The notes under the pieces are model-generated. The model worked only from the letters and a program-made list of their open reading frames with translations. It was not told the origin of the DNA and searched no databases. The position numbers and the translations under genes were made by a program. From Chitinophagaceae bacterium (GTDB lineage Bacteria > Bacteroidota > Bacteroidia > Chitinophagales > Chitinophagaceae): a DNA stretch of 37,132 nucleotides. Every line of letters begins with the position of its first letter. Within the stretch, counting starts at the first letter, position 1. Below, piece after piece: positions 1 to 15,588 of the stretch. The stretch spans positions 1-37,132 of the forward strand of contig CANGOT010000001.1 of assembly GCA_947455425.1 (NCBI GenBank), read 5' to 3'.

Positions 1-1206
1 GATAAACCAATTAAAGGTCATACACTAATGCAAACCATAGCAAGAGCCAACAGGGTGTATGATGATGAGAAAGAAAATGGTTTAATTGTGGACTATGGTA
101 ATGTATATAAACAATTAGAAAAAGCATATTCAGTATATGGTGAAGGTGGTACAAAAGGTGGTGGTTCAACTGGAGAAAGTGCTGGTATAGAAAGACCTTT
201 TGAATTATTGGAAGATGATGTAAAAGGATTGGCTGAATCCATTGAAAATACAAAGAACTATCTAGCTGAACTTGGTTTTATTTTGGATGAATTAACATTG
301 CCAACACTGAAACCAATGGAGAAATTAGGTTGTATAAAAAAGGCGGTTGATTGTGTTTGTTTAAATGAAACTACAAGAACCAAATATGAAGTGATGGCTC
401 GTGAAGTCTTTAGAAAATATATGGCTTTGTATCCTCAAGATGTTATTAAACCACATATCAAAAATTTTAATGCAATTGAAGCAATCTATCAACAATTAAA
501 TCAACAAACAAAAGATGCTGATGTTACTGAAATTATCAAGAGGCTTCAACAGGTTGTTGATGATAATGTAATACTTCAAAATAAATCTCTTAACGATGTT
601 ACACAAGAAGTATATGTTGATTTATCAAGATTGGATTTTGACAAACTGAGAAAAGCATTTGCTTTAACGACTAAAAAGAAGACTGTTCTATTTGATTTAC
701 AAAGAGCGGTTGATAAAAAGATGAAACAAATGTTGAAAGACAACCCAATGAGGATGGAGTTTTACAACAGATACAAAGAGATTATTGAGGAATATAACAG
801 GGGGAAAGATTTAGAAGACACTATGAAATCTTTTGATAAACTTTTCAAATTTGTTCAAGACTTAAATGTAGAAGACACCAGAGCATTGAGAGAAAATTTA
901 GATGAGGAAGCTTTAGCCATATTTGATTTACTAAGAACAGGTAAAACACTTACAACAGAGGAACTAAAAGAAGTAAAAAAAATATCGGTTGACACACTAT
1001 CAAAATTAAAAGAGGAAAAGTTGAAGATTGAACGTTGGAGAGAGAGTAGACAAATAACTGCACAAGTAAACACAATGATATTCGACTCCTTTCAGTGGTT
1101 ACCTCAAAACGCTTACACAGACAACGATGTAAAAGAAAAAGCTACCATTGTTTACCAACATATATATACCAATTATGGTAATTTCAGGATGGGTGCAAGT
1201 GCTTAA
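1..1206 (+). CDS. hsdR: Type I restriction enzyme R subunit (HsdR), C-terminal portion; the 5' end lies outside the window
   Basis: The frame is open from nt 1 (DKPIKGHTLMQTIARANRV...). QTIARANR matches SF2 helicase motif VI as seen in HsdR. A long helical C-terminal region typical of HsdR follows. TAA stop at 1204-1206. Confidence 0.8.
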   Translation, partial: DKPIKGHTLMQTIARANRVYDDEKENGLIVDYGNVYKQLEKAYSVYGEGGTKGGGSTGESAGIERPFELLEDDVKGLAESIENTKNYLAELGFILDELTLPTLKPMEKLGCIKKAVDCVCLNETTRTKYEVMAREVFRKYMALYPQDVIKPHIKNFNAIEAIYQQLNQQTKDADVTEIIKRLQQVVDDNVILQNKSLNDVTQEVYVDLSRLDFDKLRKAFALTTKKKTVLFDLQRAVDKKMKQMLKDNPMRMEFYNRYKEIIEEYNRGKDLEDTMKSFDKLFKFVQDLNVEDTRALRENLDEEALAIFDLLRTGKTLTTEELKEVKKISVDTLSKLKEEKLKIERWRESRQITAQVNTMIFDSFQWLPQNAYTDNDVKEKATIVYQHIYTNYGNFRMGASA

Positions 1207-1468
1207 TTAAAAAAATAGTTTTGTCGTAACAACAGTATATATATAAATACATATTATTAACGTCTGTAATACAATTTCAAATTACACAAACTCAGGATAC
1301 AAACATCTCAATCATCAATTCTTTAACAAGTTAACTGCTATACTTGTATTACAATTTCACTGATAAGATATTATCCCTTTCGTCAAGTGAGACCCCAAAA
1401 TTTGTCGTAACGGAATTGTATGTTTTGTCTGTTAGTTTTTCAACAAGTATTTATTATAAAAGATACCT

Positions 1469-1759
1469 ATGGAAACTGAAGAAATACTAATAAAAACATT
1501 GATTGAAGACGAAGGATTAATCATTTACCCAAAATTCAACGAACCACTTTTAACATCTGAAAAGTTCCCTTTACAATATGAATACATTGATATTTTTATT
1601 GATTTGATTTTACGAGAAGCAGATTATAATTCAGATAAAATTGGTTTCATTTCTAGCGTTGAGGAGATGAAACATTTTCTATGTTTAACGCTGAGTAAAT
1701 ATGATGAGTATAATATAAAAAAAGTGATAGAAGCCGTTGAAGACAATGAAAATAATTAA
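1469..1759 (+). CDS. Small strongly acidic hypothetical protein (96 aa)
   Basis: Clean ATG-to-TAA ORF in AT-rich DNA. 22 Asp/Glu against 9 Lys/Arg. No recognisable domain. Confidence 0.45.
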   Translation: METEEILIKTLIEDEGLIIYPKFNEPLLTSEKFPLQYEYIDIFIDLILREADYNSDKIGFISSVEEMKHFLCLTLSKYDEYNIKKVIEAVEDNENN

Positions 1760-1828
1760 CCAGTAGAAAGTCAAATTGCTGCGAGTTTGCTTAAGTCTTC
1801 ATGTAACCAAGATCTTAAGACTGAATTA

Positions 1829-2078
1829 TTGGTTGGAGCAGTAATTAACAGGGATGTAGTAATCAGGACGAGGAAGAAAAATGATCCGATAGTTTGGTTG
1901 GAGCAGTAATCTGAAAACCCTGAAACCCAAACTGGATCTAAACTGTAGATCTTCTCTCAGTATGTGTATGTTGGTTGGAGCGTTTCCTTCTACCCGGAGA
2001 AAAATGTACTAGGAGTATAATTCCGATCTCACGGGTAATGACATTTTGGTTGCAGCATATAAAGGTGGCTCCAACCAA
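1829..2078. repeat. Five copies (4 direct, 1 inverted) of the 11-nt motif TTGGTTGGAGC in non-coding DNA
   Basis: Direct copies at 1829-1839 and 1894-1904, both extended to the 17-nt TTGGTTGGAGCAGTAAT. Further direct copies at 1971-1981 and 2046-2056 (TTGGTTGcAGC). Inverted copy GCTCCAACCAA at 2068-2078. Copies 4 and 5 form an 11-11-11 inverted-repeat site. Copies 3 and 5 could form an 11-13 bp stem around 86 nt. Confidence 0.85.
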
Positions 2079-2174
2079 TAACCCTGATCTAAAGATTAAA
2101 AAAAATATGGAGAAGAATGAATTGGAGTTCACCACTCACAACAAAACTTCGTTTTAATTTCCGAGAACTACCTC

Positions 2175-2203
2175 AACTTACACTTTGTAACAAAGTATAA
2201 GTT
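2175..2203. repeat. 29-bp near-perfect palindrome AACTTAcACTTTGT-a-ACAAAGTaTAAGTT
   Basis: 13 of 14 arm positions are complementary around the centre at 2189. It lies 130 bp upstream of the recombinase ATG. An 8-bp-stem hairpin follows at 2211-2233. Confidence 0.8.
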
Positions 2204-2332
2204 AAATACAAAACCCTTACTGGTAAAGGGTTTCAGAATATTGATGTTTTTTACCCTTCAGTTAACTTAGACTTAGCATTAAATATTAGGCAAGTATTAG
2301 TTGCAGCCGTACGTTAGCACAAATAAATTTAT

Positions 2333-2923
2333 ATGAGTTTAAAAGGTCAACGTACAACAACTACTTCAATGGACTGGGATGATTTCAAAAGTCTAATCTC
2401 CAAACTTGAAAGAGATAAAGAATTTAAGTTCTGTTTACTAGTCAGTATTGGGGTATTCACTGGTCTTAGAATTAGTGATTTACTGAAATTGAATTTTAGT
2501 CAGTTTGAGGAAACAGAGATATTAAATATTCAAGAACAGAAAACAAAGAAGGTGAGGAAAATCAAAATCAATCCTGATTTAAAAGTGATTGTTGATAGGT
2601 TAAGGTCTAAAATGGGTGTTGTGGATTTAAGTACATTAATATTCGTAAATAAGTATGGTACGAAACCTATTGACAAATCTTATGTGAATGTAAAGTTGAA
2701 AGAATTGCTTAAACAATACAATGTTCAAGTTGATGGTAATGCCAGTAGTCATTTATTTAGAAAGACACTGGGTAATCGTGTATTGCGTTTAAACAACTAT
2801 TCAAATGAGGCTGTTATATTATTAATGGATTTATTTTCACATAGTAGTCCAGCAGTTACAAAGAGGTATCTTGGAATAAGGGAGAAAGAAATATATGATG
2901 TCTATGATAGTGTTAGGTTATAA
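2333..2923 (+). CDS. Short tyrosine site-specific recombinase (catalytic domain only, 196 aa; similar in size to FimB/FimE)
   Basis: Catalytic signature readable in order: GLRISDL (Arg), HLFRKT (His-x-x-Arg), SHSSPAVTKRYL (His, then the nucleophile Tyr). There is no N-terminal core- or arm-binding domain. Confidence 0.8.
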   Translation: MSLKGQRTTTTSMDWDDFKSLISKLERDKEFKFCLLVSIGVFTGLRISDLLKLNFSQFEETEILNIQEQKTKKVRKIKINPDLKVIVDRLRSKMGVVDLSTLIFVNKYGTKPIDKSYVNVKLKELLKQYNVQVDGNASSHLFRKTLGNRVLRLNNYSNEAVILLMDLFSHSSPAVTKRYLGIREKEIYDVYDSVRL

Positions 2924-2967
2924 ACAAGAGGCTGCCTTAAAATTTTGTTTTAAGGCAGCCTCTTGTT
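2923..2967. terminator. Perfect 20-bp-stem hairpin, bidirectional terminator
   Basis: AACAAGAGGCTGCCTTAAAA-ttttg-TTTTAAGGCAGCCTCTTGTT immediately after the recombinase stop, with T-rich flanks. Confidence 0.8.
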
Positions 2968-2996
2968 TTATGGAGCTTTACAAGGAAAGGTGATTT

Positions 2997-3524
2997 TTAC
3001 TTATTACAATAGCAACTATGTGGTTTTATATTTAAAAACCTAAGTTTTTGCAGCTTAAAAGCTGCAATTTTTGATTTTATTGCTGCTTTTTTGCGTAGGT
3101 TTTGACTCAAGGATAATAACCCCACTTCTACAGTAACTTTTTTAATTCCTCGTAGTATAAATCTTTTAAAGTGATGGTTGTTTTTGATGTTGCCAAATAC
3201 AGGTTCTACATCCCAACATCGCTTTTTTCGATGGGCTATTACTTCATCTGATTGGAGATTTTCTTTGGCTTGTTGTTTAAGTTTATTGATGTTGTGATTG
3301 ATGCCGATGATTCTATTGCCTTTTGATTTATGGCAAGTACCATTTAATGGGCAAGTACTGCAATTTTGTGCTTGATAGTTGGTAATGGCTTGCTTAAAAC
3401 CAGTGCTGGTTGTTTGTAGATGTGTACCTGAATTTTCTTGGACAAATCTTATTATTTCGCAAAAACTAAGATTAATTATCTCATTGCTATTTTCTACCAT
3501 TTTGAACCAAATGATCATAGGCAT
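2997..3524 (-). pseudogene. IS1182-family (IS5-like DDE) transposase remnant, C-terminal ~175 aa only
   Basis: The Cys-rich segment (NCSTCPLNGTCHKSKGNRII) and the C-terminal motif EPVFGNIKNNHHFKRFILRGIKKVTVEVGLLSLSQNLRK are characteristic of IS1182-type transposases, which are roughly 450-500 aa. The upstream part is missing or out of frame. Confidence 0.65.
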
Positions 3525-3608
3525 AGCATCTTCAAATTCTTGGTATGTCCAATGGCGAACTTTTTATGTATAAATCCCCATAATTTTTTTAAAGAAACTT
3601 CATTCATA

Positions 3609-3920
3609 TTAATAATCTACTTTTTCTAATTCTGGTGGAATTGTTTCCCCATCTTGTTTAGGTTTACCAGACGTAGGTGCAGACTCTTTATACAATTTTA
3701 TATCATATCCAGCAACACGTAACCCAACATACATAAGTATAATAATAACTAATCCAATAAACAAATACTTGTAATTGATAAAGGTTTTTTTCATAATCTC
3801 GTTACTATCAGACTTTTGTTTTGAAATTTCATTTTTAGGTATTTCTATACTAACACCACAATTAGAACAAAACTTTGAGTTATCCTTTATTTCATTACCA
3901 CAAGAATTACAGTAATTCAT
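3609..3920 (-). CDS. Zinc-ribbon membrane protein (103 aa)
   Basis: N-terminal CxxC-x12-CxxC (MNYCNSCGNEIKDNSKFCSNCG), then one hydrophobic helix (YLFIGLVIIILMYVGL). Confidence 0.55.
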   Translation of the reverse strand: MNYCNSCGNEIKDNSKFCSNCGVSIEIPKNEISKQKSDSNEIMKKTFINYKYLFIGLVIIILMYVGLRVAGYDIKLYKESAPTSGKPKQDGETIPPELEKVDY

Positions 3921-3988
3921 ATTTATTAATTTAATTTACAATATTTTTTTATACCCATCAATGTATTCAAAAATGATTTTTGTTCCTT

Positions 3989-4186
3989 CTATTCTGAAAT
4001 CCATTTTAAGGTTTTTTTCATGGTTAATTCATTCATTGTTTTATAAACACCACAAAAATTATAGCTAATAGTCTGAGATTTCAATTCCTTAAGTGTAAGT
4101 CCTCGACTTAACCTAATAGATTTAAGTCTACCACCAAGTTTTTTTAATTGAATATGTTGATTCTTATTAAACCCCATCGGGTTCAA
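3989..4186 (-). CDS. Small XRE-like helix-turn-helix protein (65 aa)
   Basis: LGGRLKSIRLSRGLTLKEL resembles the first helices of XRE/Cro-type HTH domains. A perfect 18-bp palindrome lies 27 nt upstream of its ATG. Confidence 0.45.
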   Translation of the reverse strand: MNPMGFNKNQHIQLKKLGGRLKSIRLSRGLTLKELKSQTISYNFCGVYKTMNELTMKKTLKWISE

Positions 4187-4212
4187 TAGTATTTCTTACT
4201 AAAACAAATTCA

Positions 4213-4230
4213 ATCAACGTATACGTTGAT
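4213..4230. promoter_or_regulatory. Perfect 18-bp palindrome ATCAACGTATACGTTGAT, putative operator
   Basis: Lies in the divergent intergenic region between the HTH ORF (minus strand) and the membrane-protein ORF at 4396 (plus strand). Confidence 0.5.
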
Positions 4231-4395
4231 ATTAAAAAATTAATTATTCTTGCATTTGATTATTTACAGTTAGTAGATTGAAATCATCTTTTTATTAAAA
4301 TCATTAATTGATGTTTAGGTAATCAATAAATTTAAGTAAGGTGCAAAAAGATAACCAAACTGTCGGCACTTGGAAAAAAATAGGAGAAAAACAAT

Positions 4396-5028
4396 ATGTT
4401 AAACAATAATGTAAAAAGTAATACACAATCAATAATAGAGTGGAGTGTTTTGATCCCCTATTTTTTATCAAGTGTGTTATTTGGAATAAAAGATTTTTTT
4501 AATAGTTCTATTGAGGTTTGGATTAATAATCATTGTGGTATAACATTTATAAGCCTTAGTTTACTTACACTTAGTTCTGTAGTTCTCAATTCATTTACGC
4601 TTAATCATGAAATTAGAAAATTTGATTTAGTACTAATTGCAATTCAAATTTCAATAAGTTTTTTTGTCGGTCAATGGTTTCATCATGTAGATCAATCTAT
4701 TAGAGAAGTAAAAGTTGGATATGAACCCGATATAATAGGAATTGTTGCATATAGCTTCCTTACAGCACTCTTACCAACTATAATTATAATCCTTCGTGCA
4801 CCAAATATTAGAATTGAGAACTTGGAAAAGCAACAAAAACTCATGCAGGAACAATTAGATCAGTTAAAATCAAATTCGCAAAATATTAATGAATTTGAAT
4901 ATACAGAAGGCAGCCCAATAATTCCAGGGAATCGAGTATCTTTTATGGTATTTATGGCTGTTGTTGTGTTGTTTCTTTGGCTAATCGGATACAAGCTATT
5001 AGTGATCATGAAAGTATTATTTGGATAG
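4396..5028 (+). CDS. Hypothetical multi-pass membrane protein with a central coiled-coil segment (210 aa)
   Basis: Several hydrophobic helices, a charged ENLEKQQKLMQEQLDQLK stretch, and a C-terminal helix. No recognisable domain. Confidence 0.5.
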   Translation: MLNNNVKSNTQSIIEWSVLIPYFLSSVLFGIKDFFNSSIEVWINNHCGITFISLSLLTLSSVVLNSFTLNHEIRKFDLVLIAIQISISFFVGQWFHHVDQSIREVKVGYEPDIIGIVAYSFLTALLPTIIIILRAPNIRIENLEKQQKLMQEQLDQLKSNSQNINEFEYTEGSPIIPGNRVSFMVFMAVVVLFLWLIGYKLLVIMKVLFG

Positions 5029-11784: not shown

Positions 11785-14700
11785 TTACTCAAACTTTAAG
11801 TCTAAGCCTAAACCTCTTAATTCGTGAACCAATACATTGAATGATTCAGGAACACCTGGTCTAGGGATATTATCGCCTTTTACAATAGCTTCATAAGTTT
11901 TTGCACGACCAATAATATCATCAGATTTCAGTGTTAATAATTCTTGTAAAATATTGGCTGCACCATATGCTTCTAATGCCCAAACCTCCATCTCACCAAA
12001 TCTTTGACCACCAAACTGAGCCTTACCACCAAGAGGTTGTTGAGTAATCAAACTGTATGGTCCAATGCTACGAGCGTGCATTTTATCATCCACCATATGG
12101 TGTAATTTAATTACGTAGATAACACCTACTGTTGCTTTTTGGTGGAATCTCTCACCTGTTTCGCCATCATAAAGGTGTGTATGACCATTTAAAGGAATTC
12201 CGGCTTCTTTACACAAGTTTTCAATTTCAGTAGTGCTAGCACCATCAAAAATTGGCGTTGCATATTTTCTACCTAGTTTTAAGCCTGTCCAACCTAAAAT
12301 GGTTTCATAAATCTGACCCAAGTTCATACGAGAAGGTACACCCAATGGATTCAACACAATATCAACCGGTGTTCCATCTTCCATAAATGGCATATCCTCG
12401 GCACGAACAATTTTAGCAACGATACCTTTATTTCCGTGACGACCCGCCATTTTATCACCCACTTTCAATTTACGCTTAACGGCAAGATAAACTTTAGCAA
12501 GTTTTAATACACCAGCTGGTAATTCATCACCAATTGAAATATTAAATTTATCTCTTTTAAATCTACCTAACTCTTCATTAAACTTAATCGTATAGTTATG
12601 TAATAAAGTATTAATGGCTTGGTCTACTTTTTCTTCACCAGTCCAACCCAAAGGGTTAATACCGTGAACATCTAAAGAAGCCAGATTTTTTTGGTTGAAC
12701 TTAACTCCTTTACCTATCAAAGTTTCTCCATAACTATTAGTAACACCAGCAGATGTTTTATCTCTTAGCAAGATCGTTAATTTTCCAACTAACTGTTCTT
12801 TTAGATCATCTACTACTAAATTATGGGCTTTCTCTACTTTTTCTAAAGCCGCTTTTTCACGAACTTTAGAGTTTTTATCTTTTTTCGCTCTTTGGAATAA
12901 TTTTTTATCGATAACAGTTCCTTCTGTTCCATTTGGAGCTTTTAAAGAAGCATCTTTTGCATCACCTGCTTTGTCTCCAAAGATCGCACGTAAAAGTTTT
13001 TCTTCCGGAGTTGGATCACTTTCTCCTTTAGGAGTAATTTTTCCAATTAAAATATCACCTTCCTTAATTGTTGCACCAATTCTGATGATACCATTTTCAT
13101 CAAGGTCTTTAGTTGCTTCCTCGCTAATATTGGGAATATCAGAAGTTAATTCTTCTTCGCCTAATTTAGTATCTCTTACCTCTAATTCATATTCATCGAT
13201 GTGTAAAGAAGTAAACAAATCCTCTCGAACAACTTTTTCATTAATTACAATGGCATCCTCGAAGTTATACCCTTTCCAAGGCATAAATGCAACAACTAAA
13301 TTTCTTCCTAAAGCTAACTCACCATTTTGAGTAGCATAACCCTCAGTTAAGAAGTCTCCTTTTTTAACTTTTTGTCCTTTTTTAACAGCAGGACGCAAAT
13401 TGATACAAGTAGATTGGTTGGTTTTAACAAATTTAGTTAGTTTATAAACTATCAAATCATCGTGAAAAGATATTAGTCTATCATCATCATTTCTATCGTA
13501 ACGAATATGAATTTCTCTTGAATCAACAAACTCAACAACCCCATTTCCTTCTGCGTGAATTTGAATACGAGCATCTAATGCTGCTTTTGCTTCTAGTCCA
13601 GTACCTACAATTGGAGCATCCATTCTAATCAATGGCACAGCTTGACGTTGCATATTTGATCCCATCAAAGCACGGTTGGCATCATCATGTTCCAAGAAGG
13701 GAATTAATGAAGCAGAAAGACCTACAATTTGATTTGGAGCAACGTCCATATATTGAACATCTGCTTTATCTAAAATTGGAAAATCTCCAGTATCTCTACT
13801 CACAATTTTTGCTTCTAAGAAATTACCTTTATCATCTATTGGTGTATTACTTTGTGCAATTTTTTTATCTTCTTCCTCTTCAGCACTCATATACTTAAAC
13901 TCTTTCAAATTCACCTTGCCATTATCAACTTTACGATAAGGAGTTTCAATGAATCCCATATCATTAATAGCAGCATGAACGCAAAGTGTTGAAATCAAAC
14001 CAATGTTTGGACCTTCTGGAGTTTCAATTGTACATAAACGACCGTAGTGAGAATAGTGTACGTCACGAACCTCGAAACCAGCTCTTTCTCTACTCAAACC
14101 ACCAGGTCCTAATGCTGAAATACGACGTTTGTGTGTAATTTCAGAAAGAGGATTCGTTTGATCTAAGAATTGAGATAGCTGAGATGTACCAAAGAATGAG
14201 TTAATAACAGAAGAAAGTGTACGAGCATTAATCAAATCAACTGGTGTAAATACCTCGTTGTCACGAACATTCATTCTTTCACGAATAGTACGAGCCATAC
14301 GAGCTAAACCAACACCAAATTGTGCATACAATTGTTCTCCAACAGTTCTAACACGACGATTTGATAAATGATCAATATCATCAATCTCAGCCTTAGCGTT
14401 TGTTAAACGCACTAAGTATTTAATGATTTCGATAATATCTTGTTTCGTCAATACTTTTTTCTCAATAGGAATAGCGTGTTCTAGTTTTCTGTTGATTTTG
14501 TAACGACCAACTTCTCCTAAATCATAACGCTTATCACTAAAGAATAATTTATCGATAATACCACGTGCAGTTTCGTTATCCGGAGCATCTGCACCACGCA
14601 ATTGGCGATAGATATGCTGAACCGCCTCTAACTCACTATTAGAAGTATCTTTATTTAATGTATTGTAGATAATTGCATAGTCTCCACCTAATTCCTCTTT

Positions 14701-15588
14701 TTGAATGAAGATACTTTCTATACCCATTTCAACAATAGTATCAATACCATCTTCATCCAAAACTGTATCACGCTCCATTACAATTTCGTTACGCTCAATA
14801 CTAACAACCTCTCCTGTATCTTCATCTACGAAATCTTCAACCCAAGTTCTTAAAACGCGGGCTGCAAGTTTTCTACCAACATGAGGTTGAAGTGCTTCAG
14901 CATCCACAGTAATTTCATCAGCCATTCCAAAAAGCTCAAGAATGTCTTTATCAGTTTCAAAACCAATTGAACGCAATAAGGTGGTTACAGGGAACTTTTT
15001 CTTTCTATCAATGTAAGCATACATTACATTGTTAATATCTGTAGCAAATTCCATCCAGGCTCCTTTAAAAGGAATTACACGGGCAGAATAAATTTTAGTA
15101 CCATTAGGGTGTGTTGATTGACCAAAGAATACACCTGGAGAACGATGTAATTGAGAAACAATTACACGCTCTGCACCATTCACAACAAAAGTACCACGAG
15201 GTGTCATATAAGGAATATTTCCCAAAAACACATCTTGTACAATTGTTTGGAAATCTACGTGCTCTTCATCATTACAACTCAATCGCAGCTTAGCTTTTAA
15301 AGGCACCGCATACGTTAATCCACGCTCCATACACTCAACAATCGAGTAACGTGGCGGATCAATAAAATAGTCTAGAAACTCTAAAACGAAAATGTTACGA
15401 GTATCAGTAATAGGAAAGTTTTCCTTGAATACTTTAAACAATCCCTCGTTGTTACGCTTATCCGGCGTAGTTTCTAATTGAAAAAACTCTCTGAAAGATT
15501 CTAGTTGAATATCTAGTAAATCAGGAGCTGCTGCTAGGTGTTTTGTTTTACCAAAGTTAATCCTAGTATTTAAGGTTGTTGTAGACAT
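11785..15588 (-). CDS. rpoB: DNA-directed RNA polymerase beta subunit (1267 aa)
   Basis: Full-length, with unmistakable RpoB blocks ([69 protein letters not shown]). Confidence 0.98.

Follow-up and report, generated by a model that had tools for sequence, protein, structure and literature searches.

Background

Plasmid origins of the iteron type, such as P1 oriR, pSC101 and F, carry iterons of 17-22 bp that classically lie about 22 bp apart. In Cre/loxP, XerS/difSL and XerH/difH, the recombination site lies beside the gene of a single recombinase. Integron integrases (IntI) are proteins of about 320 amino acids (aa) with a specific insertion, and the associated attC hairpins are ordered R''...R'. 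In the Rsd/crs system of the Salmonella virulence plasmid, imperfect direct and then inverted repeats reportedly lie upstream of a small tyrosine recombinase, near an origin-like sequence. The TnpI/IRS system of Tn4430 uses a site of ~120 bp with four motif copies, of which an inverted pair makes up the core and the remaining two are accessory; the accessory motifs beside the core give resolution its selectivity (PMC2847244). Here we analyse positions 1760-2332 of a 37,132-nucleotide (nt) stretch of DNA from a Chitinophagaceae bacterium (contig CANGOT010000001.1; hereafter, the window), in which an 11-nt motif recurs five times directly upstream of a gene for a 196-aa tyrosine recombinase.

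An earlier note on this DNA had read the repeats as possible sites of the recombinase: a core site, an att region or a miniature invertible switch, with a structured RNA as the alternative. That plausible first reading needs correcting, as the eye-catching repeats are not the recombinase's sites. The best explanation of the region is two independent neighbours, namely a repeat array linked to a gene for a small acidic protein, ORF96, and a recombinase module at 2175-2302. A literature search turned up no earlier account of this recombinase family, of its site or of the ORF96 array.

The repeat array is conserved and travels with ORF96

Loci compared with the window are given L numbers throughout. 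The ORF96 unit comprises the following features.

1210-1468, plus strand: leader and promoter region of the ORF96 unit, by homology with L027, L028, L029 and L047
1469-1759, plus strand: ORF96, a small acidic protein (isoelectric point (pI) 4.25), directly upstream of the array
1760-2088, no strand assigned: repeat array, the non-coding part of the ORF96 unit (alignments A5, A6 and A7)
1826-1845, plus strand: copy 1, with TTGGTTGGAGC at 1829-1839, invariant in five of five aligned loci
1894-1910, plus strand: copy 2, TTGGTTGGAGCAGTAAT, from repeat search and alignment
1971-1981, plus strand: copy 3, TTGGTTGGAGC, with variants in L047, L034 and L029
2046-2078: palindromic unit, with copy 4 (TTGGTTGCAGC, 2046-2056) and the inverted copy (GCTCCAACCAA, 2068-2078) on either side of an 11-nt spacer
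1811-2089: six GATC sites, at 1811, 1883, 1935, 1948, 2025 and 2086, about one or two per repeat unit

We confirmed four direct copies and one inverted copy of the motif. TTGGTTGGAGC is perfect at 1829, 1894 and 1971 on the plus strand and at 2068 on the minus strand; the copy at 2046, TTGGTTGCAGC, carries one mismatch that had not previously been noticed. Successive copies are spaced by 65, 77, 75 and 22 nt, the first three distances being as first described. These five are the only matches with at most one mismatch to TTGGTTGGAGC anywhere in the 37-kb window, and all fall within 1829-2078. Shuffled sequences gave a mean of 0.49 matches, and none of 100 shuffles reached five.

Several nested symmetries arise from these copies. 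Copies 1 and 2 extend to the identical 17-mer TTGGTTGGAGCAGTAAT, and copy 1 forms a perfect 14-bp inverted repeat with the inverted copy (1826-1839 and 2068-2081). Paired with each direct copy in turn, the inverted copy encloses 11, 86, 163 and 228 nt. Two of these arrangements had been singled out before and stand: the 86-nt segment bounded by copy 3 and the inverted copy, and the 11/11/11 palindrome of copy 4 and the inverted copy, which contains one C.C mismatch. The segments between copies have nothing in common beyond the motif within the window. Neither the two overlapping open reading frames (ORFs) at 1938-2135 (minus strand) and 1975-2157 (plus strand) nor a 40-aa ORF matched any protein family. 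Across both overlapping ORFs the homologous loci also differ by insertions and deletions (indels) that are not multiples of three, and the two ORFs are therefore spurious, as had been suspected. A tRNA scan of the window found none.

GATC is markedly enriched in the array. Its six occurrences in 415 nt compare with an average of 1.45 in shuffles (P ~0.0015) and correspond to 14.5 per kb in the array versus 1.1 per kb across the window, a difference of about 13-fold. Similar enrichment was found in L028, L029, L034, L027 and L033, and the GATC at 2025 is an invariant column in alignment A7. The window-wide density of 1.1 per kb is itself lower than the ~3.5 per kb predicted by the array shuffles.

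We compared the array across five loci (the window, L028, L047, L029 and L034), which together provide 55 motif columns. Motif columns are 82-100% identical versus 40-67% for the remaining columns. L028, which has the same four-plus-one array, is nearly identical to the window, with 86% identity outside the motif. Between the window and L047, the motif copies are 98% identical and the intervening sequence 67%, and intervening identity falls to 40-54% when the window, L028 or L047 is compared with L029 or L034. Because the motif columns are conserved so far above the sequence between them, the copies are under selection, and that selection acts on the motif copies themselves.

The arrangement is conserved along with the motif. 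L029 and L034, whose ORF96 proteins are 46-48% identical to that of the window, retain four direct copies and one inverted copy in unchanged order, at spacings of 62/85/75/21 and 63/79/71/21, respectively. Copy 4 and the inverted copy can still pair in each of the five loci, at 8-10 of 11 positions (alignment A7). Copy 3 varies, as TTGGCTGGAGC in L047, TTGGTTAGAGC in L034 and TTGCTTGGAGC in L029, and these changes are uncompensated in the inverted copy. In L029, the inverted copy itself has diverged (GATCTAACCTA) and is mirrored in copy 4 only, through one G-C to A-U change. All five arrays are collinear, and the assemblies (as distinct from reads) contain no inversion or deletion between copies. 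Two further loci depart from this pattern. In L027, the array is replaced after copy 1 by sequence with its own TTGGT-type inverted repeat. L033 has its own array of a different motif, ATGCACCAC, present in four copies, a count above every shuffle; this analogous region is a tandem duplication of ~70-nt units.

Two sister loci separate the array from the recombinase. L047 and L048 have the gene order hsdM-hsdS-hsdR-ORF96-array, with all five copies and the same hsdR/ORF96 junction as the window; we found no recombinase in them and neither of the recombinase sites described below (sites 1 and 2). Their homology with the window stops at ~2088, ten bases past the inverted copy. The reciprocal case is the rule among recombinase loci: TTGGTTGGAGC occurs in 0 of the 26 loci that we fetched first, a set of Bacteroidota genomes and metagenome-assembled genomes (MAGs) whose recombinases are 49-88% identical. 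Nearly all genomes in this analysis are MAGs; Maribellus sp. CM-23 (L018) likewise carries the recombinase and lacks the array. The earlier note had itself named the lack of this repeat architecture at homologous recombinase loci as grounds for abandoning its reading, and 26 of 26 lack the motif. Since the array exists without the recombinase and recombinase loci exist without the motif, the array travels with ORF96. It belongs (1760 to ~2088) with ORF96 and the leader at 1210-1468, not with the recombinase. The interval 1760-2332 is thus made up of two units, the ORF96-linked array and a recombinase unit that runs from ~50 nt before site 1 to the stop codon. The module common to L027, L028 and L029, whatever their flanks, corresponds to 1210-2931 of the window (recombinase identity 89-96%).

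On its left side, the ORF96 unit has an equally sharp border. Homology with L027, L028, L029 and L047 begins at ~1210 regardless of the left flank, and a Bacteroidetes-type -7 box, TAGTTTTG, lies at 1216-1223, exactly at that border. It is the sole perfect TAnnTTTG within 1150-3000. The leader contains two repeated elements, TTTGTCGTAAC (1220-1230 and 1401-1411) and TGTAWTACAATTTCA (1265-1279 and 1345-1359). The TGTAWTACAATTTCA element also occurs upstream of the gene for ORF88 in L035.

ORF96 has no match in Pfam, NCBIfam, PADLOC or PHROG. Its nine homologues are all labelled 'hypothetical', and the AlphaFold2 (AF2) model (predicted local distance difference test score (pLDDT) 73) has no Foldseek match at E ≤ 0.001. 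Acidity is a family trait (pI 4.3-4.8), and the small acidic ORFs of the sister loci are distant relatives of one another. We considered ORF96 as a DNA-binding factor, a candidacy weakened by its acidity and by the lack of a structural match.

The recombinase has putative sites of its own

The second unit occupies the remainder of the interval and the gene that follows.

2175-2203: site 1, presumed crossover (core) site, 11-7-11, AACTTACACTT-TGTAACA-AAGTATAAGTT
2210-2233: hairpin AAAACCCTTACTGGTAAAGGGTTT between sites 1 and 2, conserved in close relatives and L010
2264-2302: site 2, presumed accessory or autoregulatory, 11-17-11, AACTTAGACTT-N17-AAGTATTAGTT, overlapping the presumed recombinase promoter
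2310-2317, plus strand: TACGTTAG, a putative -7-like promoter box (family consensus GTAnnTTAG), a conserved block in alignment A10
2333-2923, plus strand: tyrosine recombinase, 196 aa, catalytic domain only (PF00589, E = 8.2e-13, residues 14-182)
2922-2968: perfect 21-bp hairpin, likely recombinase terminator, just past the right border of the conserved unit

The protein belongs to the tyrosine recombinase superfamily, with R46, H140, R143, H170 and Y179 all present. It had been described as a catalytic-domain-only enzyme of FimB/FimE size, and so it is, but the likeness to FimB and FimE goes no further than the superfamily. BLASTP gave no significant alignment to Escherichia coli FimB (E = 1.3), and the alignment with FimE covers 83 residues at 25% identity. 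XerA (5hxy, E = 9e-6) is the best match in the PDB, and NCBIfam returned only Xer-type models (XerA/XerC/XerS/XerD), all below their cut-offs. At E ≤ 0.001, the family comprises more than 2000 protein clusters, almost all exactly 196 aa long. It is an abundant, undescribed Bacteroidota family of catalytic-domain-only recombinases, with a presumed target beside the gene.

About 170 nt directly upstream of the start codon are common to all 26 recombinase loci. A paired half-site scan yielded AAGTATAAGTT as the family half-site and AACTTAYACTT-N7(8)-AAGTATAAGTT as the consensus of site 1. The array motif differs from this half-site, and the recombinase half-sites lie 100-230 bases further downstream, at 2175-2185, 2193-2203, 2264-2274 and 2292-2302. 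Only two other half-site matches with at most one mismatch occur in the 37 kb, at 608 and 4706, and we take them as chance. The four half-sites, like the six GATC sites inside the array, had escaped the earlier note.

Both sites hold a fixed place before the gene. Of the 34 sequences scanned, 27 have site 1 at 157-175 nt before the ATG, and 26 have site 2, whose half-sites are 17-18 bp apart, at 68-80 nt before it. In an alignment of 27 loci (A10), the half-sites are invariant columns and the spacers vary; the regions from site 1 to site 2 are collinear in all 27, and these assemblies contain no orientation variants or junctions at the recombinase sites. In flavobacterial relatives (50% identity), both arms are altered symmetrically, as AACTATCACTT / AAGTGATAGTT. 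Site 1 has the inverted arms, the spacer of 6-8 bp and the conservation with the recombinase expected of a simple core site; the TTGGTTGGAGC copies do not.

The half-site is presumed from these patterns to be the recombinase's recognition sequence. The enzyme would then carry out resolution or rearrangement of the Cre/lox or Xer/dif kind at site 1 as the crossover site, with site 2, over the presumed promoter, in an accessory or autoregulatory role; a module like TnpI/IRS would also fit. An att-type region had indeed been suggested upstream of this gene, and a site region does lie there, although built from AAGTATAAGTT rather than TTGGTTGGAGC. Copies 4 and 5 of the array, once proposed as the core site, do not qualify: the half-site differs, the motif is absent from the 26 recombinase loci, and L047 and L048 keep it. 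A candidate 29-bp lox-like site (11-7-11) was hidden within the same interval as the more eye-catching repeats.

The box TACGTTAG may be read as the recombinase promoter. The hairpin between the two sites, given before as 2211-2233, persists in the relatives listed above and in a pattern scan is terminator-like on the minus strand only. Homology with sister loci stops at the recombinase stop codon.

We also asked how common upstream repeats are across the family. An unbiased k-mer scan found that the repeat excess upstream of the gene is not above shuffles in most recombinase loci, which rules out repeat arrays as a general trait of all of them. Clear arrays were limited to the window, L028, L034 and L033, with weak three-copy cases in L029, L035, L010 and L012. 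In L037, L039 and L043, unrelated genes reach within 90-290 nt of the recombinase start. Further copies of the recombinase occur in some genomes: L011 has a second copy ~2.4 kb upstream with its own site-2-like promoter (1490-1560, 4001-4588), and L004 and L007 lie 1.2 Mb apart on one metagenome-assembled chromosome, OW818688.1. A sequence over the right arm of site 2, TTAGTTGCAGC (2297-2307), differs by one base from copy 4, TTGGTTGCAGC. With P ~0.03 and no conservation in L029 or L034, this is probably a chance match.

Candidate function of the array

In the sister elements L027, L028, L029, L033, L034, L035 and L036, a replication-type gene adjoins the ORF96-type unit, and these genes fall into three unrelated classes. 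L028, L029 and L034 encode a 534-539-aa protein (L028 1025-2644, L029 1052-2668 and L034 81-1685, all minus strand) with no Pfam, NCBIfam, PHROG or PDB sequence match. Its AF2 model (pLDDT 83.5) retrieved family-A DNA polymerases as all of its top 50 Foldseek matches (best E = 5e-4, probability ~1, TM 0.3-0.36). Its 149 homologues are unnamed or 'hypothetical' and lie mostly on contigs of 2-10 kb. Judged by the modelled fold, these proteins may form a previously unannotated family structurally like family-A DNA polymerases. The neighbour in L027, L035 and L036 is a PrimPol (BT4734-like_N / PrimPol_Db), with a homologue in L005, and that in L033 is a replication-initiator or DnaD-like protein.

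We tentatively read the array as a set of cis-acting protein-binding DNA sites of the origin or iteron type on an integrated plasmid-like island. This reading starts from motif copies that are conserved, linked to ORF96 and independent of the recombinase, and from the replication genes observed beside the unit in sister elements. Conserved motifs together with one local palindrome fit recognition by a trans-acting factor, and the four direct copies and one inverted copy found in five loci match the pattern of iteron origins, which have at least three direct copies and an inverted one. We infer that the copies act as DNA rather than RNA and that their function is origin-like. The unit of promoter region, acidic ORF96 and array would be carried on a mobile, plasmid-like island in a Bacteroidota-type genome, and the five copies would most likely be recognised, as double-stranded DNA, by a sequence-specific factor. 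By way of three or four direct copies, this factor would be loaded along ~250 bp; at the palindrome of copy 4 and the inverted copy, it would bind as a dimer. A second, possibly methylation-sensitive, layer could come from the conserved GATC sites that lie between copies. The array as a whole would then serve as an origin-type, iteron-like region for maintenance or transfer of the island.

A number of observations weigh against this reading. The copies are not closely spaced as iterons are; distances of 62-85 bp amount to 5.9-8.1 helical turns and are not integral. ORF96, the only gene always linked to the array, is acidic, and no DNA-binding fold can be recognised in it. In the window, L047 and L048, hsdR rather than a replication gene adjoins the unit, and a search of the window's island found no replicase elsewhere in it. 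With the motif conserved between the window and L047 all the same, the array works without an adjacent replicase. The polymerase-like and PrimPol proteins are absent from PLSDB and from the phage collection, where recombinase relatives reach at most 38% identity. The array also lies between two plus-strand genes and downstream of a -7-type box, so that the region is probably transcribed, and the four independent array lineages available give low power for covariation. The wide and irregular spacing, the matter of the binding factor and selection in places without a replicase keep our confidence in an origin-type function below even.

Probable transcription opens the way to a rather unlikely alternative, in which the array is either a long structured 3' untranslated region on the ORF96 mRNA or a non-coding RNA in its own right. 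Each repeated UUGGUUGGAGC would be a target of an RNA-binding protein or of a complementary RNA, or the repeats would take turns in pairing with the single GCUCCAACCAA. The array is on the same strand as both flanking genes, with the -7-type box at 1216 ahead of it and no convincing plus-strand terminator before 2210. An acidic partner such as ORF96 is an unlikely DNA binder, and the unit is conserved without an adjacent replicase. Plus-strand folding is modestly more stable than that of shuffles (z = -1.9 for 1760-2332 and -2.1 for 1790-2100), but most of this excess comes from the built-in inverted repeat, and z is -3.5 for the minus strand and -2.8 for single-stranded DNA. All five loci retain the hairpin of copy 4 and the inverted copy, and L029 shows a single compensatory change in it, from G-C to A-U, yet the diverged inverted copy of L029 is not mirrored in copies 1-3; the copy 3 variants of L047, L034 and L029 are uncompensated, and changes in copies 1-3 behave likewise. 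On the five sequences, from four independent lineages, RNAalifold returned +3.4 as the covariation term. Double changes occur at 7 of 57 predicted pairs, but many of the pairs are broken in the diverged members. A helix between 1771-1782 and 1903-1914 that looked covarying with four sequences has three mismatches in L047. Rfam 15 gave no match at the gathering score and nothing in 1760-2200 at E ≤ 10; at that relaxed limit it yields only spurious miRNA-like matches on the terminator hairpin at 2909-2984. The conserved GATC palindromes suit a DNA reading better. These results weaken the structured RNA first proposed, whose local hairpins at 1935-1952 and 1993-2034 are not kept in L029 or L034.

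The remaining explanations return the array to the recombinase or deny it a function. It is doubtful that the copies are accessory sites (arm-type or cer/psi/IRS-like) that make 1760-2302 one large att or res region. An 11-bp motif in four direct copies and one inverted copy over 250 bp does resemble the arm-type sites of lambda. The array lies directly upstream of the recombinase gene, ~100-350 bp from the core site, a placement known from resolution systems, and array and recombinase are adjacent in the window, L028, L029 and L034. Against this, L047 and L048 keep the array with no recombinase or core site, most recombinase loci lack it, and in L037, L039 and L043 unrelated genes come close to the recombinase start. 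In L027, most of the array has been replaced next to a recombinase that is 95% identical. Motif and half-site are different sequences, and a protein of 196 aa offers no additional domain with which to read a second motif. Far less credible still is an invertible or deletable switch, a mini fimS or shufflon with TTGGTTGGAGC copies as crossovers, despite the inverted pairs and the small tyrosine recombinase gene next door. The family half-site differs from TTGGTTGGAGC, the five arrays are collinear, the array exists without the recombinase, and the enzyme is no relative of FimB or FimE; these results leave the mini fimS first proposed without support. An invertible segment of 11 or 86 nt would also be very short for tyrosine-recombinase synapsis. 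Equally hard to credit is a region with no function, be it a chance feature, a degenerate tandem duplication or a decayed gene. The intervening segments of the window are alike only in the motif and the L033 analogue clearly arose by tandem duplication, yet motif identity of 82-100% against 40-54% for the interveners, a copy number far above chance and no protein-family match in any frame all argue against it.

A last lead, which we regard as a long shot, would connect array and recombinase after all: the array motif may specify where the mini-recombinase acts, by a guide-like choice of crossover spacer as RNA or DNA. It stems from a third site, with full recombinase arms (11-9-11) and the spacer CTGRWGCAA, that is present in L028, L029, L033 and L034 (L046 denotes the whole contig of L034). 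It is placed 8 nt before the start codon of a 176-186-aa gene that precedes an adjoining N6/N4 methyltransferase gene, and in L029 and L033 it lies 2.6-3.2 kb upstream.

L028, 762-792: site 3
L029, 820-850: site 3
L033, 410-440: site 3
L046, 4777-4807: site 3

In L029, the site 3 spacer C-TGGAGCA-A and the array TTGGAGCA share an exact 7-mer. In L033, the spacer is C-TGGTGCA-A, and the reverse complement of the array ATGCACCACTAA contains TGGTGCA. On the other side, L028 and L034 share that array motif and yet carry the spacer CTGATGCA, which agrees at 5 of 7 positions, the orientation of the match differs between L029 and L033, and the window is cut before any site 3 could appear. Covariation of motif and spacer is thus confined to two of four loci and may be coincidence. 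We know of no guide-like mechanism in this enzyme class; if true, the array would license or template the crossover spacer of a catalytic-domain-only tyrosine recombinase.

Whichever function applies, the ORF96 unit is a two-part unit, an acidic protein with a repeat and GATC array, that is under selection beside three classes of replication gene or a type I restriction operon. Replication, transfer, partition and regulation are its candidate roles.

Island context

Two neighbouring features flank the units described above.

28-1206: C-terminus of HsdR, a type I restriction subunit (family matches)
2997-3524, minus strand: C-terminal fragment (175 aa) of an IS1182-family transposase (DDE_Tnp_1_6), directly after the recombinase terminator

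The IS1182 fragment marks a rearranged right flank. GC content is low (28-32%) over the first 11.7 kb of the window; rpoB and other core genes begin at 11.8 kb. The cargo of this low-GC island consists of hsdR, the ORF96 unit, the recombinase, the IS1182 fragment, a Zn-ribbon protein, ORFs of no assigned function, a helix-turn-helix (HTH)-WYL regulator and a WG-repeat protein. The rpoB gene is full length (11785-15588, minus strand) and is not followed by rpoC on its strand; the low-GC island lies on its 3' side.

L046 gives a fuller view of such an element. From one end, it carries a tRNA 3' end, a gene for a 433-aa integrase, two small genes, the N6/N4 methyltransferase gene and the 176-aa gene, and continues with the 534-aa gene, ORF98, the array, site 1, site 2 and the 196-aa recombinase. 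Its gene order marks L046 as an island integrated at a tRNA, in which the mini-recombinase occupies the far end. The tRNA 3' part, within positions 1-1438, has the anticodon loop CTGAAAA and is probably tRNA-Phe. Two GTGCACAG repeats lie between the tRNA and the 433-aa integrase gene. We considered the array as arm sites of this large integrase and rejected the idea: the integrase-side repeats GTGCACAG differ from the array motif, and the array is 8 kb away.

Searches of other collections added no further copies of the locus. In metagenome scans, neither the ORF96 profile nor a 31-nt pattern taken from the 5' region of the recombinase found a match, in a collection that is evidently without these contigs. 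Viral contigs contained no ORF96 and no recombinase. A scan of viral contigs for two motif copies 40-70 nt apart returned three matches, none similar to window 1-4500; L031 and L032 are coding tandem repeats unrelated to the locus, and L030 comes from a giant-virus MAG.

Comparison with known systems

Several systems can be set aside by simple differences. A lambda-type attP was rejected, given a recombinase with no N-terminal arm-binding domain. An integron does not fit a protein of 196 aa that scores 42.6 bits against a cut-off of 220 with the XerA / 'integron integrase' model, nor the motif order GTTGGAG...CTCCAAC, the reverse of attC. A type III toxin-antitoxin locus was ruled out: the units are alike over 11-17 nt only, tandem repeats of ~36 nt are lacking, the downstream gene is a recombinase, and PADLOC gave no match. 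A CRISPR array is likewise excluded by repeats of 11-17 nt versus 23-50 and by 'spacers' that are homologous between loci, diverged rather than replaced.

Other systems share part of the architecture. The recombinase resembles FimB and FimE in size (196 aa versus 200 and 198 aa) and in having non-coding inverted repeats next to its gene. It differs from a fimS system in that the inverted TTGGTTGGAGC copies lack the half-site AAGTATAAGTT and the assemblies hold no orientation variants. Unlike those reported for Rsd/crs, the repeats described here segregate independently of the recombinase.

The array is closest to iteron origins. Like them, it combines several direct copies of a short motif with an inverted pair; like P1 oriR, it has a cluster of GATC sites, and it lies near a resolution system and, in sister elements, near replication genes. 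It differs in that its copies are 62-85 bp apart rather than ~22 bp, with a motif core of 11-17 nt, and in that no initiator lies beside the array of the window. The replication genes of sister elements, moreover, are of three classes, and the array type is constant.

The recombinase module finds its likenesses elsewhere. Sites 1 and 2 (2175-2302), and not the TTGGTTGGAGC array, lie directly upstream of the recombinase gene as in TnpI/IRS; in contrast to the tandem second pair there, the one here is also inverted, around a 17-bp spacer, the recombinase has 196 rather than 284 aa, and there is no Tn3-type transposase. As a chromosomal dif system it does not fit, because the recombinase occurs in at least two copies in one genome (L004 and L007), with a tandem second copy in L011, and in varying contexts. 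The enzyme also has no N-terminal core-binding domain (196 aa versus 300-350 in Cre and Xer proteins). With these systems it shares two 11-bp inverted arms around a 7-8-bp spacer beside a single recombinase gene, and its best matches are Xer-type. The recombinase and its adjacent site would thus form a Cre/lox-like pair, open to direct test, that marks the ends of mobile, defence-carrying islands.

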